Part shown: positions 3,209-39,639 of the stretch, one piece after another
Position numbering within the stretch: position 1 is the first letter of the stretch
Layout: the number at the start of each line of letters is the position of its first letter
Source of the DNA: Candidatus Aenigmatarchaeota archaeon
GTDB lineage: Archaea > Aenigmatarchaeota > Aenigmatarchaeia > PWEA01
Assembly (NCBI GenBank): GCA_046539325.1
Contig: JBKHHD010000008.1
Span: forward strand, 1-41,272
Direction: 5' to 3'
DNA length: 41,272 nucleotides
Translations under genes and position numbers: made by a program
Notes under the pieces: generated by a model
Seen by the model: the letters and a program-made list of their open reading frames with translations, nothing else
Databases searched by the model: none
Told to the model about the DNA's origin: nothing

Positions 3209-3307
3209 TGGCGTCCTCGGTGGGATTTGAACCCACGGCTCCCAGCTTAGGAGGTTCACCATCCATGTTTGGATTCTGGTGCTCTGTCCAGGCTGAGCTA
3301 CGAGGAC
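3209..3307 (-). tRNA. tRNA-Arg(CCT) with a 21-nt non-canonical intron at 30/31 (3255..3275); CCA encoded
   Basis: GTCCTCG/CGAGGAC acceptor and GTGGG-TTCAAAT-CCCAC T arm. Removing AATCCAAACATGGATGGTGAA restores CCAGC-CTCCTAA-GCTGG. Strict BHB: GAG-CACC-AG^A-ATCCA/TGGAT-GGTG-AA^C-CTC. Confidence 0.93.
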
Positions 3308-5923: not shown

Positions 5924-7366
5924 TTACTTTCTCTTCCAGACGGTCTCGCCACCTTCGTCCTCAAGAACTATTCCAGCGTCATTCAGAACCTCTCTTACCC
6001 TGTCCGCCCCCTCGTACCTCTCCTCCTCTCTCAACTCCTCTCTTATATCTATAAGGAGCTCTACAGCCTTTTCAGGAATCTTTCCACCTTCCTCCTCCAG
6101 ATTGAGCTTCAGTCCGAGGACCTCGCCTAGCTCCTGGATTTTCTCCTTGGCTCTTTCCAAAAGTTCCTTCCTGTTGTTCAGATTCTTGTTCACCTTCTTT
6201 GAGAACTTCATTAATTCGTTCAATGCTCCGGGCGTATCCAGGTCGTCGTCCATTGCCTCTTCGAACTTCTCCTCAAGTTTCTCCAACTCTTCCTCCAGAT
6301 TCTCCTTGGTACCCCCTTCGGCGTTTTCTATATTCCATAACGTGTTGTAGAGCTTCTCTAGGTTTCCTTCTGCGCTCTCAAGAGCTTCGTGGTTGAAGTC
6401 TATCTGTTTGCGGTAGTGGCTCGAGGCGAAAAACATCCTTAGAACTTCAGCGTCGTATTTCTCAAGCAACTCCCTTACAGTGTAGAAGTTGCCTTCGCTC
6501 TTGCTCATCTTTTCACCTTCTATAGTCATATGCTCGCTGTGCATCCAGTAGTTGACTGGTTCTTCGTCCAGGCCGTTCATAGCGATGTTCTGTGCTCTTT
6601 CGTTGGGATGGTGCGGAAAAATATGGTCCACTCCTCCCGTGTGAATGTCGAACTTCTGTCCAAGGTACTTCGAGCTCATGACACTGCACTCGAGGTGCCA
6701 TCCTGGGTAGCCTTTGCTCCAGGGTGAAGGCCAGTTCATTATATGTTCCGGATCAGCGTTTATCCAAAGCGCAAAGTCTAGAGGAGACTTCTTCTCTTCC
6801 GTTTCTTCCTCTTCTACTCTCCCTCCTCTGCCCGCTTCAAGCTCCTCTATATCCATGTTTCCTATTTCCGGATAACCGTAATCCTCGTAGAACTTCATAA
6901 CGTCGAAGTACACGGACCCGTTCCTTTCGTAGCCGTATCCACTTTCGATTATATCCTTTACAGCTTCTATCATCTCGACCATGTGGCCTGTAGCTCTCGG
7001 ATTTACGTTGTGTGTCTTCATGTTCAGCCTGTCCATCTCCTCGTACCACCTCTGCACCTGCTCCGTGACAAGCTCTCTGGGTTCTACACCCCTTTCCTTT
7101 GCCTCCTTCTCCACTTTATCATCGCCTCGGTCCGAGTCGTCCGTTAGATGTCCAACGTCCGTTATATTCATTACGTGGAAAACGTCGTAGCCCTTCCACG
7201 TGAGGTAACGGTTGAGGATGTCCCAGGCCGCGTAAGTTTTCGCGTTGCCCACATGCATATCCAGATATATGGTCTGGCCACAGGAGTAAATATTCACCTT
7301 CCCTTCTTCCAGGGGCTCGAACTCCCCCTTCTTACCTGTCATCGTGTTGTACAGCTTGAGAACCAT
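5924..7366 (-). CDS. cysS: Cysteinyl-tRNA synthetase (class I)
   Basis: CGQT..HVGN, PGWHLECS, DIHTGGVDHIFPHH and KMSKS motifs. Confidence 0.97.
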   Translation of the reverse strand: MVLKLYNTMTGKKGEFEPLEEGKVNIYSCGQTIYLDMHVGNAKTYAAWDILNRYLTWKGYDVFHVMNITDVGHLTDDSDRGDDKVEKEAKERGVEPRELVTEQVQRWYEEMDRLNMKTHNVNPRATGHMVEMIEAVKDIIESGYGYERNGSVYFDVMKFYEDYGYPEIGNMDIEELEAGRGGRVEEEETEEKKSPLDFALWINADPEHIMNWPSPWSKGYPGWHLECSVMSSKYLGQKFDIHTGGVDHIFPHHPNERAQNIAMNGLDEEPVNYWMHSEHMTIEGEKMSKSEGNFYTVRELLEKYDAEVLRMFFASSHYRKQIDFNHEALESAEGNLEKLYNTLWNIENAEGGTKENLEEELEKLEEKFEEAMDDDLDTPGALNELMKFSKKVNKNLNNRKELLERAKEKIQELGEVLGLKLNLEEEGGKIPEKAVELLIDIREELREEERYEGADRVREVLNDAGIVLEDEGGETVWKRK

Positions 7367-7380
7367 GCTACCACGAGTAG

Positions 7381-7514
7381 AGCCGGGCGCCGGATTCGAA
7401 CCGGCGTACGCGGATATCCGAAACCTTTTCCTTTTTCGCGAACGTTTTTACGAGCCTTTGTGAGTAAAAAGGTTCCTGCAGTCCGCTGCCTAAGCCAGAC
7501 TCGGCCAGCCCGGC
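7381..7514 (-). tRNA. tRNA-Cys(GCA) with a 60-nt intron at 37/38 (7416..7475); no encoded CCA
   Basis: GCCGGGC/GCCCGGC acceptor, U73, GCGGA-CTGCAG[intron]A-TCCGC, GCCGG-TTCGAAT-CCGGC. Relaxed BHB with intron helix AACCTTTT/AAAAGGTT. Confidence 0.93.
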
Positions 7515-7700
7515 CTCTGTGTTTATTGGTTTTAGAAGCTTTAGAGAAAAGATGAATCTATAGAAGAGCTCACCAAACTTCTCAGTAATTTTCCCAAAGA
7601 CAAAAACGTCCACCTACCATCATACCACAGCCTTTGCTTTCTCCTCACTCCTTAAATATCTTTTGGGATTTTTTAAACGAAAAATACTATTGTACCTGTT

Positions 7701-8159
7701 ATGTCCAAGGAAGATCTGGAAAGGTATATGAAGGAGGAAGACATAGACGGCGAGTTTGTGGAGATGGACGGTGAAGTGAAGACTGTTAGGGACTCTGCGA
7801 AGTACCTCGACGAACCCATGACGAAGATAGCGAAGTCCATAGTTTTCGTCGTCGGCGATGAAAGGGTTCTTGTGTTTTTATCAGGTAACAAAGAGGTCGA
7901 TGAGGAGAAGCTAAGGGAAGTTATGGACGCAGAAAGCTGTAGGATAGCAAAACCACCAGAAGTGAAGGAGGCTACAGGTTACGAAGTAGGTGAGGTACCG
8001 CCTGTGGGTACCGGCCTGAAGGTTATACTGGACGAATACGTCATGCAGATGGACGAAGTGTATGTCGGCGGTGGTTCAAGATATCACCTTGTAAGAATGA
8101 CTCCAGATGAGATAGAGGACAATACGGATTCGCAGGTCGAGGATATTTCAAGGTCTTGA
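7701..8159 (+). CDS. ybaK: YbaK/ProX-family aminoacyl-tRNA deacylase
   Basis: IAKSIVF, ATGYEVGEVPPVG and YVGGG motifs; TTTTAAA box upstream. Confidence 0.88.
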   Translation: MSKEDLERYMKEEDIDGEFVEMDGEVKTVRDSAKYLDEPMTKIAKSIVFVVGDERVLVFLSGNKEVDEEKLREVMDAESCRIAKPPEVKEATGYEVGEVPPVGTGLKVILDEYVMQMDEVYVGGGSRYHLVRMTPDEIEDNTDSQVEDISRS

Positions 8160-8162
8160 TTT

Positions 8163-8348
8163 TTATTCTTCTTGGCCTTCGTCTTCAGGGATATCTATAG
8201 GGAAGTATACCATTGATTCATCGTCGTAAAGGCCCATGCCTTGTGGATTTTCTGCCATCCTTCTTCCCATCTCATCTAAATCGGTAGCTTCTTCGTAGGT
8301 TTCCCTTAGAAAGTTCGCGACTTTGTCAAGTTTTTTGGTGAATGACAT
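8163..8348 (-). CDS. Small acidic hypothetical protein
   Basis: 61-aa ORF that fills the intergenic space, with genome-typical composition. Confidence 0.55.
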   Translation of the reverse strand: MSFTKKLDKVANFLRETYEEATDLDEMGRRMAENPQGMGLYDDESMVYFPIDIPEDEGQEE

Positions 8349-8426
8349 GTTACCATATAGTAATTAACCCTCAAAGCTTTTAAACATTTATCTCCATTGT
8401 CATTGAATGTTTCATTGGGGAGATCA

Positions 8427-9461
8427 ATGATGGATCCACATCAAATCGAGCTTTCCCGGGAGGTAATAATAGGAAACGAAGCATACAGAGAGTTCCCGAA
8501 AATTCTCGATAAGCTTGGACTTAAGGGACCGGCTCTTCTTCTCTGTGATGAAACCACTTTTGAAGTCGCTGGTGAGGAGGTCAAAGATATTTTGGAGAGG
8601 GAAGGTTACGCGGTGGAGAAGATGATATGCAAAGACGTTACACAGGAGGAGCTGGACAGGGTATTGAGGGAGGCGGAGCACTTCCGTTTCGTTCTAGGCG
8701 TCGGCGGAGGAAGGATAATTGATACTGCGAAGTACGTCGGAACCGAGGAGTCCGTTCCTTATATTTCTGTTCCTACAGCTCCTTCACACGACGGAATAGC
8801 CAGCTCAAGGGCAACTATAAACAAGGAGGATCGAAGGTATTCTTACGAAGCGGATGCACCGATGGCGATAGTCGCCGACATAGGAGTTATATCCAACGCT
8901 CCCTACGAACTTATAGCGGCCGGCTGTGGCGATCTTCTTTCAAATATAACTGCTGTAGAGGACTGGAAACTGGGGCAGAGCGACAACAACGAATACTATT
9001 CTGACTATGCCGCAGCTTTGTCGGTCCTTGCGGCTGAGATGGTTATAAGTTCCGCAGACATGATAAAGGAAAGAGAGGAGAGGGGAATAAGGAATCTTGT
9101 CAAGGCTTTGATATCGGCAGGAATAGCGATGTCCATAGCCGGTTCTTCAAGACCTTGCTCGGGAGCGGACCATCAGTTTTCGCATGCGCTGGACTACATA
9201 GCTGAGGAACCCGACAACCATGGAATACAGTGCGCTATGGGAGCCTTAGTTTCTGCTGAAATGAGAGGCATGGACTACAGCAAGATCAAGGAAGCTATGG
9301 TGAAGCTCAGAATACCTACAGAGGTTTCCGATACGTCCTTTTCCGAAGAGGAAGCTATAAGAGCCTGGAACGAAGCAGGTGATATAAGGGAGAGATATAC
9401 AGTGCTTGACGTCAAGGAAGAAGATACTGAAAGCTTATTTAAACGTGCGGGTATTATATAG
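8427..9461 (+). CDS. egsA: sn-glycerol-1-phosphate dehydrogenase
   Basis: GVGGGRIID.AK, PTAPSHDGIAS, SSRPCSGADHQFSHALD and HGIQC motifs. Confidence 0.95.
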   Translation: MMDPHQIELSREVIIGNEAYREFPKILDKLGLKGPALLLCDETTFEVAGEEVKDILEREGYAVEKMICKDVTQEELDRVLREAEHFRFVLGVGGGRIIDTAKYVGTEESVPYISVPTAPSHDGIASSRATINKEDRRYSYEADAPMAIVADIGVISNAPYELIAAGCGDLLSNITAVEDWKLGQSDNNEYYSDYAAALSVLAAEMVISSADMIKEREERGIRNLVKALISAGIAMSIAGSSRPCSGADHQFSHALDYIAEEPDNHGIQCAMGALVSAEMRGMDYSKIKEAMVKLRIPTEVSDTSFSEEEAIRAWNEAGDIRERYTVLDVKEEDTESLFKRAGII

Positions 9462-18868: not shown

Positions 18869-19135
18869 GACAGGGAAGGGCCGGGTCGACAGTCAGACTG
18901 GAGAAGTTTACCTGTCCTCCTCCTCAGTCCTGCGATCCCCCGAACATCCGATCTACAGCTTAGGGCTGCTCCCGTCAGGGCCTGACCCGGTTGACTGCAG
19001 AGCAGATCCCGGAGGACAGGACGTCGACGTTGGAAGACAGGGCTCCCCCAGCCGGACGTGCCTGGCCGGCTTTTCGGTCGCCCTGTAGAGGTTTTGGGCT
19101 AAAGATGACCCCTACCCATCCGACCTATCCCTGTC
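18869..19135 (-). ncRNA. ffs: Signal recognition particle (7S) RNA, 267 nt
   Basis: Terminal helix GACAGGGA/TCCCTGTC; Alu domain with loop-loop complementarity GTAGGGGT/ACCTCTAC; long helix 5; helix-8 SRP54 motif CAGG-CCC-TGAC-GGG-AGCAG. Confidence 0.93.
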
Positions 19136-39423: not shown

Positions 39424-39639
39424 AGCCCGGTAGTCTAGCCACCTTTTACTCACTTCGTTCGCAAAACGCGGGCGAAAAGAATACGGGTGGGACAATGGTC
39501 AAGGATGTCGGGCTTTGGGCATCTGCTCAAAGCATTGAGCTTTTTGTCGAGCGATGAAAGAAACCCGGCGACCCAGGTTCGAAAGAAGAAATCGGGATTT
39601 CATATTTCCGGTTTCCCGGAAATCCTGGCCGGGCTACCA
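39424..39639 (+). tRNA. tRNA-Gln(TTG) with three introns: 15/16 (39439..39495), 37/38 (39519..39562), 59/60 (39584..39622); CCA encoded
   Basis: Removing the three segments leaves a 76-nt cloverleaf: AGCCCGG TA GTCT AGTGGTCAA GGAT G TCGGG CTTTGGA CCCGG CGAC CCAGG TTCGAAT CCTGG CCGGGCT A CCA. A1-U72 is typical of archaeal tRNA-Gln; each junction pair forms a BHB or BHB-like motif. Confidence 0.9.

Follow-up and report, generated by a model that had tools for sequence, protein, structure and literature searches.

The window analysed here is a stretch of 41,272 nucleotides of a Candidatus Aenigmatarchaeota archaeon (GenBank assembly GCA_046539325.1, contig JBKHHD010000008.1, positions 1 to 41,272). 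Our analysis concerns two of its introns, located between positions 37 and 38 of tRNA-Cys(GCA) and between positions 15 and 16 of tRNA-Gln(UUG). On balance, our results favour the interpretation that both introns are copies of one small hairpin cassette which is widespread in archaea, and that this cassette is mobile, inserting at the DNA level and providing a splice site. The evidence comes from the covarying structure of the cassette, from its many copies in this and other archaeal genomes, and from orthologous sites at which it is present, absent or replaced.

Relatedness and structure of the cassette

The original prediction had placed an intron of 60 nt in tRNA-Cys and one of 57 nt in tRNA-Gln, and had pointed to collinear blocks common to both. 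The introns indeed lie at these sites, and alignment confirms that the shared blocks are real. Taken by itself, the pair is suggestive of common descent and not decisive. In the proposed test, with 5000 shuffles that preserve dinucleotide composition, the likeness was only modestly above chance: the global alignment score was 29 against 12.1 ± 4.5 for the shuffled sequences (reached by 23/5000 shuffles), and the local alignment score was 21 against 14.5 ± 2.6 (reached by 140/5000). What settles the relatedness of the two introns is the existence of further copies and of covariation, both of which emerged when the genome and its relatives were searched with a core motif and with covariance models. 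A chain of intermediates with 82-91% identity connects the Cys and Gln introns, and a 27-nt block of the Gln 15/16 intron recurs unchanged in an intron of another genome of the family (G005).

Read from 5' to 3', the cassette consists of N-AAC, an unpaired C, a run of four or five U, a variable apical stem-loop, a run of four or five A, a second unpaired C, GUU-N' and a single-stranded R-CG(G)-AAAA tail. In the common hairpin obtained by folding, GAAC, the first four bases of the intron, pairs with an internal GUUC, C stands opposite C, and the U-run pairs with the A-run. Folding also bears out two elements that had been described before, an ACC/GGU closing stem and a U-run with alternative A-run partners. 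The supposed CG-N4-CG mini-hairpin, in contrast, is more aptly described as the second unpaired C of the C.C mismatch, followed by the GUU-N' strand and the start of the tail; in the fold, this GUU-N' strand forms a 4-bp helix (P1) with the first four intron bases. At about 30-45 nt, the conserved unit is shorter than the ancestral element of about 60 nt that had been envisaged.

Covariance models were built from 13 copies (R1) and from 118 matches (R2). Across 110 distinct matches, 94.2% of the helix cells hold standard pairs compared with 77.1% after shuffling of the partners, and 0/500 shuffles reached the observed value. The covariation score was 0.422, against 0.135 for shuffled partners and at most 0.130 for partners slid by 1-3 columns. 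Compensatory changes were found in 10 of the 13 pairs, and a set of 89 rows gave a similar result. Because fitted alignments lean towards the model, we re-examined the outer pair with a pattern that fixes only the inner three pairs. Left free in this way, the outer pair used all four Watson-Crick combinations among 173 distinct instances (G-C 61, A-U 47, U-A 29, C-G 27, G.U 3, other 6). Of 69 distinct rows, 67 contain the C.C mismatch, and AAC/GUU, the C.C mismatch and the CG(G)AAA tail are invariant across phyla. Counts of G.U and A.C among 859 cells (13 and 27, respectively) do not tell which strand folds.

The Gln intron matches R1 poorly (18.7 bits) because the base of its helix is CCAC/GCGG. 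Its orthologs in five relatives (G001, G005, G006, G007 and G008) have CCAC/GUGG at this place, which is a perfect 4-bp, doubly compensated P1. The hairpin has been kept through compensatory changes, and we regard it as practically certain that the family and its hairpin are real.

Host genes and copies in the source genome

When the introns are removed, a canonical tRNA-Gln is restored in our hand parse, with a 7-bp acceptor stem and with D, anticodon (UUG) and T arms. Removal likewise restores a canonical tRNA-Cys, as is apparent from the ARAGORN call and from an intron-less ortholog in G004 that is identical across the junction. Among the eight other genomes of the family, all eight have an ortholog of the tRNA-Gln gene and seven have one of the tRNA-Cys gene, with G005 giving no match. 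Default ARAGORN and Rfam each report a single tRNA in the window, against at least three that are actually present.

The source genome (G000) comprises 715 kb in 10 contigs, with 45% G+C and 91% completeness. The core motif AAAACG-N2-8-CGAAAA (AAACG/CGAAA type) occurs seven times in it, six of them at tRNA genes. These six are the Cys intron, the first Gln intron, the D-loop introns of tRNA-Val(GAC) and tRNA-Val(CAC), the 37/38 intron of tRNA-Val(CAC), and the trailer of tRNA-Pro(CGG), where the copy starts directly after CCA and has 23 + 13 nt identical to the Cys intron. R1 and R2 gave six matches in this genome at E ≤ 0.003, all of them tRNA-associated. The Cys 37/38 intron shares 83% identity with the Val(CAC) 37/38 intron and 81% with the Pro trailer; its identity to the two Val D-loop introns, which are 98% identical to each other, is 70-72%.

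By eye, weaker members can be recognised in the T-loop intron of tRNA-Gly(CCC) and in the 37/38 intron of tRNA-Thr(GGU), which has a large insert. A sister variant (type B, GAAAC-U4-loop-A5-GUUUC-AUCAAAA) was seen, again by eye, in tRNA-Ala(GGC) and in a tRNA read as Ile(UAU). According to an approximate by-eye catalogue, the family accounts for about one quarter of the roughly 40 intervening sequences in some 36 tRNA loci.

Distribution across archaea

Allowing at most one mismatch, a 16-nt core was found in 26 of 61 related genomes, including 8/8 relatives of the same family. The true pattern matched all nine genomes of this family (f1, including the source genome), and the reversed pattern, used as a control, had 0 matches in all nine. 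At E ≤ 0.001, R1 detected the element in 43 of 151 genomes sampled across the phylum, with up to 27 copies. The copies lie in D-, anticodon- and T-loop introns, directly after tRNA 3' ends, and in 16S and 23S rRNA introns, an example being the cassette inside a 16S rRNA intron between GUGCCAG and CCGCCGCGGUAA. At least 10 of 176 instances begin within a few bases of a tRNA 3' end. In Nanoarchaeota and Woesearchaeota, many copies are located immediately 5' of start codons.

A pattern scan with one genome per prokaryotic species returned at least 120 stretches, 80 of which were listed with titles (69 archaeal and 11 bacterial). Among the matches listed, R1 confirms 67/69 archaeal versus 1/11 bacterial loci, and the archaeal titles include Micrarchaeota, Iainarchaeum, Nanoarchaeota/Woesearchaeota, Aenigmatarchaeota, Undinarchaeota, Altiarchaeota, ANME-1/Methanophagales, Methanocellales, Methanosarcinales, Thermoplasmata and Bathyarchaeia. 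In five genomes from other groups, between 1 and 12 copies were counted per genome, and 4 of 7 pattern matches on IMG/VR contigs are good matches as well. With members in rRNA introns, dispersed repeats and protein genes of other archaea, the family is wider than had been claimed.

At gathering thresholds, Rfam recognises in the window the signal recognition particle (SRP) RNA and one tRNA only, and no cassette family; at eight loci with good copies, it returns rRNA and tRNA only at E ≤ 1. No description of the cassette was found in the literature by topic or by sequence string, although supplements and Fujishima 2010 were not covered and an earlier sighting is possible.

In G152 (L043/L072, contig C17) and G085 (L073, contig C5), two to three cassettes form tandem arrays whose period is 60-62 nt and whose spacers recur as well, and some of these arrays follow sequences that end like tRNA 3' ends. 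Beside one tandem pair, the contig of a relative is masked as N (L074, 1..55).

Evidence for movement

The suggestion that one ancestral element occupies different tRNAs and positions holds and was, if anything, understated: within one genus, introns of D-, anticodon- and T-loops and a 3' trailer of different tRNAs harbour copies with about 80-98% identity. Among three D-loop introns, those of Val(CAC) and Val(GAC) in the source genome and that of Ala(GGC) in G003, identity is 95-98%. A subtype with 80-91% identity is shared by T-loop introns of G004 and G007, Pro trailers of G002 and G003, a Val D-loop intron of G001 and the Cys intron of G000.

Colonisation is also supported by orthologous sites in sister genomes, which are filled, empty or replaced. 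In the seven extracted orthologs of tRNA-Cys, a set that leaves aside the matched ortholog of G001, position 37/38 is occupied by the Cys variant in two genomes (G000 and G006) and by type B in four (G002, G003, G007 and G008), and G004 lacks an intron there. At the T-loop site of tRNA-Gln, three genomes (G005, G006 and G008) carry variant b, three others (G001, G003 and G007) type B, and the remaining two (G000 and G004) other sequence. The first Gln intron is absent from G004, and a family intron at position 37/38 of tRNA-Gly(CCC) is present in G005 and G006 and absent from G000. The cassette turns over at fixed sites and occupies many non-orthologous locations.

Copies outside tRNA and rRNA genes were found in other lineages. 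In G134, a 105-nt repeat that starts with the cassette is present in unrelated contexts. Its copies comprise 17 with 100% identity, 3 with 99% and 1 with 90%, besides fragments that are cut by contig ends. In two IS200-like tnpA genes of ANME-1, cassettes occupy reciprocal filled and empty sites, each adding a net 39 nt, or 13 residues, in frame and without stop codons. The sites differ, one following the HUH motif and the other GRSSK, and one of the genes also carries a type-B copy, after CYH. Among 176 instances, 65 were in sense with a tRNA T-arm and 9 antisense, compared with 3.3% and 5% for random positions in the same loci; these shares are descriptive because the loci were selected as best hits. 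We consider it very likely that the cassette has moved between sites.

Some further observations concern the surroundings of these copies. In the 105-nt repeat of G134 (L064-L071, many contigs), the cassette forms the 5' end and a TATA-like TTTATATA lies within the repeat; in 4 of the 8 flanks read, the upstream gene may use the repeat's first TAA as its stop codon (L067 from the list of open reading frames (ORFs), the other three by eye). At L010/L039 (G013, contig C1, ~698480..698600), a cassette follows the CCA of a tRNA, and a second copy of the 10-nt tRNA end GGGUCCACCA lies ~45 nt further on, which resembles a duplicated attachment or target site. On an IMG/VR contig of 5079 nt (L246, 616..830), a tRNA 3' end in reverse complement (GGGCCCGGAGGGAUUUGAAC) is present in two direct copies with a cassette between them, an arrangement like an integration border in a tRNA gene.

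Predicted splicing

In intron copies whose host could be parsed, the cassette starts 0-2 nt past the 5' splice site, as judged by eye. The original prediction had also considered insertion into pre-existing introns; such insertion is improbable as the general case, given how close to the 5' splice site the cassette starts in the hand-placed intron copies.

In the minimum free energy (MFE) fold, a distal AAAAGGUU(U) of the Cys precursor is the partner of the 5' (G)AACCUUUU, and CGGAU faces loop bases 32-35, which would give a relaxed bulge-helix-bulge (BHB) motif. Read by hand, its central helix CUGC/UCGG has one C.U mismatch. For the first Gln intron, a canonical-looking BHB can be drawn by hand, with a CACC/GGUG helix, the bulges AG|C and AA|U, and a 4-bp GUCU/GGAC helix. 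The source genome has one gene for the splicing endonuclease, at C6:26431..27597, encoding 388 aa with two PF02778+PF01974 (N+C) units. An assignment to the epsilon-2 type is unsupported, since Pfam gives two N+C units and just one of them is covered by the alignment with the ARMAN-2 structure 4fz2.

At two loci (L028, L029), where the tail ends the intron, its CGAA can pair with the universal T-loop UUCG. A T-loop-complementary tail is a possible origin of the cassette tail. The broader idea that the tail is always the T-loop-complementary half of the 3' splice site was rejected: T-loop insertions make up only 22/173 or 25/176 instances, and in most of these insertions the intron runs 5-57 nt past the tail.

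A proposed mobile cassette and its alternatives

The results lead us to infer a non-autonomous mobile element that is tolerated in RNA genes. Such an element would be copied at the DNA level by an enzyme acting in trans. Copies in tRNA and rRNA genes would survive because the cassette RNA supplies an intron-side helix beside the 5' splice site, which may be the 4-bp base of the hairpin itself or a helix between the 5' GAACC arm and a GGUU(C) that lies downstream. Where the intron is minimal, as in a Cys intron of G129, the base helix of the hairpin would serve as flanking helix and the A-rich tail as linker. A short site-specific 3' segment would pair with the exon and form, with the hairpin side, a strict or relaxed BHB motif, and the splicing endonuclease and ligase would then remove the insertion. 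Persistence would act as a filter, in that tRNA genes would keep only sense, spliceable insertions and protein genes only in-frame, stop-free ones.

Several points weigh against this explanation. No transposase or recombinase could be linked to the cassette, with other transposase families lying outside the search. Y1 transposase (PF01797) was found in 0/5 genomes, among them G134 (27 model matches), G085 (16), G067 (15) and G161 (14), and neither a TnpB domain nor the integron integrase (TIGR02249) scored over the cut-off in any of the five. Tyrosine recombinases are present in 4 of these 5 genomes, the source genome having no candidate, and no cassette adjoins the recombinase genes that were fetched. 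The ends of the 105-nt repeat have no terminal inverted repeats, its eight flanks show no consistent target-site duplication, and no target duplication is evident at the filled and empty tnpA sites. Perfectly exon-complementary 3' segments, such as GGAG opposite CUCC in the Gly(CCC) intron of G005, are unexplained by simple insertion. The tRNA-Pro trailer copy is at the same place in G000, G002 and G003, which could mean function instead of selfish spread. Because all clear copies of the source genome are at tRNA genes, DNA-level insertion outside such genes is seen only in other lineages. Moreover, the covariation counts stem from alignments that were fitted to the model and are biased toward its structure, and splicing, circular introns and expression are predictions for both introns, not observations. 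For the region around the Cys gene (6500..8500), the sequencing runs listed as containing it were DNA runs only, all from a single study, and 2 of the 4 listed contain half or more of the sampled words.

Three other candidates were tried and rejected. The results for Y1 transposase and TnpB do not support an IS200/IS605 origin or one resembling repetitive extragenic palindromic (REP) sequences. A promoter or terminator role of the U- and A-runs, prompted by the trailer copy upstream of an ORF, was dropped as a general explanation because most copies sit within tRNA genes. No boxes of a C/D box or H/ACA guide were recognised by eye.

An alternative explanation might be that the hairpin and A-rich tail form a functional RNA module, which is selected wherever it is located, mobility being secondary. 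The module might be bound by a conserved archaeal protein for RNA processing or an RNA chaperone, might signal 3'-end formation or processing, or might persist after excision as a stable circular RNA. This would account for the positions that are invariant across phyla, for the copy that is conserved directly behind the CCA of tRNA-Pro in three genomes, and for the copies near tRNA 3' ends and just 5' of start codons. It agrees less well with presence, absence and variant replacement at orthologous sites of sister genomes, with the identical dispersed copies in G134 and with the in-frame copies in tnpA; no Rfam family matches, and a single function is hard to square with introns, trailers, rRNA and coding regions. 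We consider such a module unlikely as the primary explanation. Spread at the RNA level seems less probable still. In this scheme, the endonuclease and an RtcB-type ligase would join an excised intron to another cleaved precursor by reverse or trans splicing, and the product would then be copied back into DNA. The start of the cassette at RNA processing points, the sense orientation of copies at tRNA genes, and the pairing of tail and T-loop at two loci are consistent with this route, but the orientation and edge rules are equally explained by selection for spliceability. The coding-sequence copies and the 105-nt repeat in non-RNA genes are not at known endonuclease sites, and no reverse transcriptase was seen, though no search aimed at one was made.

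It is also conceivable, but very improbable, that the hairpins act as recombination sites like those of integrons (attC), on which a tyrosine recombinase would work in their folded single-strand form. The R box of attC sites is a 7-bp RYYYAAC/GTTRRRY helix; the cassette is comparable in that its imperfect hairpin rests on conserved AAC/GTT triplets, has one unpaired base that is invariant, and varies at the apex, but its base helix, N-AAC/GUU-N', has 4 bp. The short tandem arrays of G152 and G085 and the tyrosine recombinases in four of the five genomes tested would suit such sites, as would the integrons reported for archaea (PMC9668308), whereas no cassette ORFs lie between the copies, the fetched recombinase genes have no adjacent element, and neither an integron integrase in any of the five genomes nor a recombinase candidate in the source genome was found. 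Moreover, the element occurs in 43 of 151 genomes, whereas the consulted text of PMC9668308 gives integrons for 75 MAGs (metagenome-assembled genomes) of archaea from nine phyla, out of 6718 genomes. Lastly, the two introns might have no common origin, their likeness being due to chance or generic to BHB introns rich in A- and U-runs. The marginal local alignment of the pair would allow this, but the reading is refuted by the reversed-pattern control, by the chain of intermediates, by covariation far above the shuffled and slid controls, and by the perfect P1 in the Gln introns of relatives, which leave it a negligible probability.

Relation to known elements

As a probably mobile cassette in tRNA introns, the element invites comparison with the tRNA intron 'transposition' families of Thermoproteales (Fujishima et al. 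2010, as described in PMC4033280, PMC3239211 and 10.64898/2026.10.13.758758). According to these descriptions, related introns recur across tRNA species and positions there too, and were read as BHB-constrained intron gain by copying. High intron similarity between different tRNAs or positions within one genome, the test used for those families, is also found in the source genome. In contrast to Thermoproteales, the host here is a small-genome DPANN-type archaeon (715 kb), and its single 388-aa endonuclease with two N+C units is not of the (alpha-beta)2 kind. The cassette is further set apart, by description, in that it has a defined covarying hairpin, crosses phyla, and is also found in trailers, dispersed repeats and coding sequence.

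[quoted passage not shown] Many near-identical dispersed copies of a short non-coding sequence, a feature of MITEs, are present in G134; the source genome has only six clear copies, all at tRNA genes. The cassette is shorter than RPEs, at about 30-45 nt (39 nt net in tnpA) versus ~150 bp (PMC10969869). Unlike MITEs, it has no terminal inverted repeats or target duplications that we could see, and no autonomous transposase partner was found in five genomes searched for Y1 transposase, TnpB and integron integrase. It is archaeal and located chiefly at the 5' edge of tRNA and rRNA introns predicted to be spliced, whereas the term tRNA has 0 occurrences in the consulted text of that review.

With attC sites, as far as PMC9668308 describes them in the text consulted, the cassette has in common an imperfect hairpin with an AAC...GTT base, unpaired bases and a variable terminal structure, as well as many of the same archaeal phyla. 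Apart from the 4-bp base helix and the lack of cassette ORFs and of a detected integrase, the association with RNA genes and the A-rich tail distinguish it. The C/D box sRNAs borne by tRNA-Trp introns of Euryarchaeota (PMC12558985, consulted in part) are also a conserved small RNA module in an archaeal tRNA intron; the cassette, in contrast, has no C/D boxes by eye, is not bound to one tRNA or position, and is also found in non-intron DNA. The cassette shares one trait with each of the Thermoproteales intron families, the Rickettsia elements and integron attC sites, and lacks defining features of each. As far as the consulted texts go, intron families shared between tRNAs were already known from Thermoproteales.

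Other features of the window and the source genome

The coordinates of the two tRNA genes, their cassettes and other features are given in Table 1. The tRNA that ARAGORN reads as Trp(cca) more likely has a CCU anticodon loop (CUCCUAA) by eye, with an insertion of ~22 nt just 5' of the loop.

The second Gln intron ends in GAUGAAAGA(A), possibly a second recurrent intron motif. This 3' end has similar counterparts (GAUGAUGAAAGAAA, GGAGGAAAGAAA, GAUGAAAAA, GAUGAUAAGAAA and GGAUGAAAGC) in the 37/38 introns of five more tRNAs of the source genome, namely Lys(UUU), Lys(CUU), Met, one read as Leu and one other (C2:94324, C2:102208, C3:32387, C2:90820 and C4:60220). A third kind of T-loop intron (AGAAAACCCUUUSGAAAAG..., 50-130 nt) recurs in several tRNAs of this genome, namely in the tRNA-Gln of the window and at C2:108100-108330, C2:56844-57100 and C2:88560-88760. 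The T-loop intron of tRNA-Gln in the window is unlike the cassette variants at the same site in six sister genomes.

The tRNA-Pro(CGG) with the trailer copy (C1:45748..45870, minus strand) has an odd D-stem, GUGU/GCAU, with two wobble pairs, and a D-loop intron of 45 nt that is unrelated to the cassette. For ARMAN-2, a tRNA-Pro(CGG) with a single Watson-Crick D-stem pair is described in the consulted text of Fujishima 2011 (PMC3239211).

Table 1. Positions of the tRNA genes, cassette parts and other features (window coordinates unless a locus is named).
Feature	Position	Strand	Basis or remark
tRNA-Cys(GCA)	7380..7514	minus	ARAGORN with introns allowed; hand-parsed cloverleaf
Cys exon 1	7476..7514	minus	
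Cys exon 2	7380..7415	minus	
Cys 37/38 intron, 60 nt	7416..7475	minus	ARAGORN (introns allowed), hand parse; contiguous intron-less ortholog in G004
Cys cassette core	7432..7475	minus	top own-genome match of both models (R1 57.3 bits, R2 52.1 bits)
P1 5' strand GAAC	7472..7475	minus	
Unpaired C	7471	minus	
U5	7466..7470	minus	
A5	7445..7449	minus	
Second unpaired C	7444	minus	
P1 3' strand GUUC	7440..7443	minus	
Tail GCGAAAAA	7432..7439	minus	
Site-specific 3' extension of Cys intron	7416..7429	minus	MFE fold of pre-tRNA; relaxed BHB read by hand
AAAAGGUUU of the extension	7421..7429	minus	pairs with 5' (G)AACCUUUU as predicted intron-side helix
CGGAU of the extension	7416..7420	minus	opposite anticodon-loop bases 32-35; holds predicted 3' splice site
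tRNA-Gln(UUG), three introns	39424..39636	plus	hand parse
Gln exons	39424..39438, 39496..39518, 39563..39583, 39623..39636	plus	
Encoded CCA of tRNA-Gln	39637..39639	plus	
Gln 15/16 intron, 57 nt	39439..39495	plus	weak R1 match (18.7 bits, E 0.062)
CCAC	39439..39442	plus	
Unpaired C	39443	plus	
U4	39444..39447	plus	
A4	39463..39466	plus	
Second C	39467	plus	
GCGG	39468..39471	plus	
Tail GCGAAAA	39472..39478	plus	
Closing strand GGGUGG	39485..39490	plus	
GGAC	39490..39493	plus	pairs with D-stem strand GUCU
Gln 37/38 intron (intron 2)	39519..39562	plus	
Gln T-loop intron	~39584..39622	plus	boundaries ambiguous by a few A's
SRP RNA, archaeal	18869..19135	minus	Rfam, 127.7 bits over the full model
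tRNA, 99 nt	3209..3307	minus	ARAGORN: Trp(cca) without intron
tnpA gene with cassette	L154 825..1439	minus	ANME-1/Methanophagales MAG contig; site empty in the other gene
tnpA gene with cassette	L126 3692..4147	plus	ANME-1/Methanophagales MAG contig; site empty in the other gene

Implications

For annotation, our results mean that cassettes conceal tRNA genes from standard finders and also add in-frame segments to protein genes. A more far-reaching possibility, which we put forward tentatively and hold to be somewhat doubtful, is that non-canonical tRNA and rRNA introns derive in large part from one pan-archaeal mini-element of ~30-45 nt. This element would insert as DNA almost anywhere and, because its hairpin forms one half of the BHB motif, would create its own splice site in structured-RNA genes. 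If this is true, 'introns' of DPANN archaea, ANME-1, Methanocellales and others would be domesticated or tolerated transposon copies, and there would be a direct, datable route from transposon to intron in Archaea. The consulted text of a census of Asgard tRNA genes from 2026 identified no general way for introns to arrive (10.64898/2026.10.13.758758). A structurally defined, cross-phylum mini-element that is present in tRNA and rRNA introns as well as in ordinary DNA offers a handle on the origin of archaeal tRNA introns. With a searchable element, recent bursts, and filled and empty sites at hand, intron origin, the minimum that the endonuclease recognises, and the mobilising enzyme become testable.

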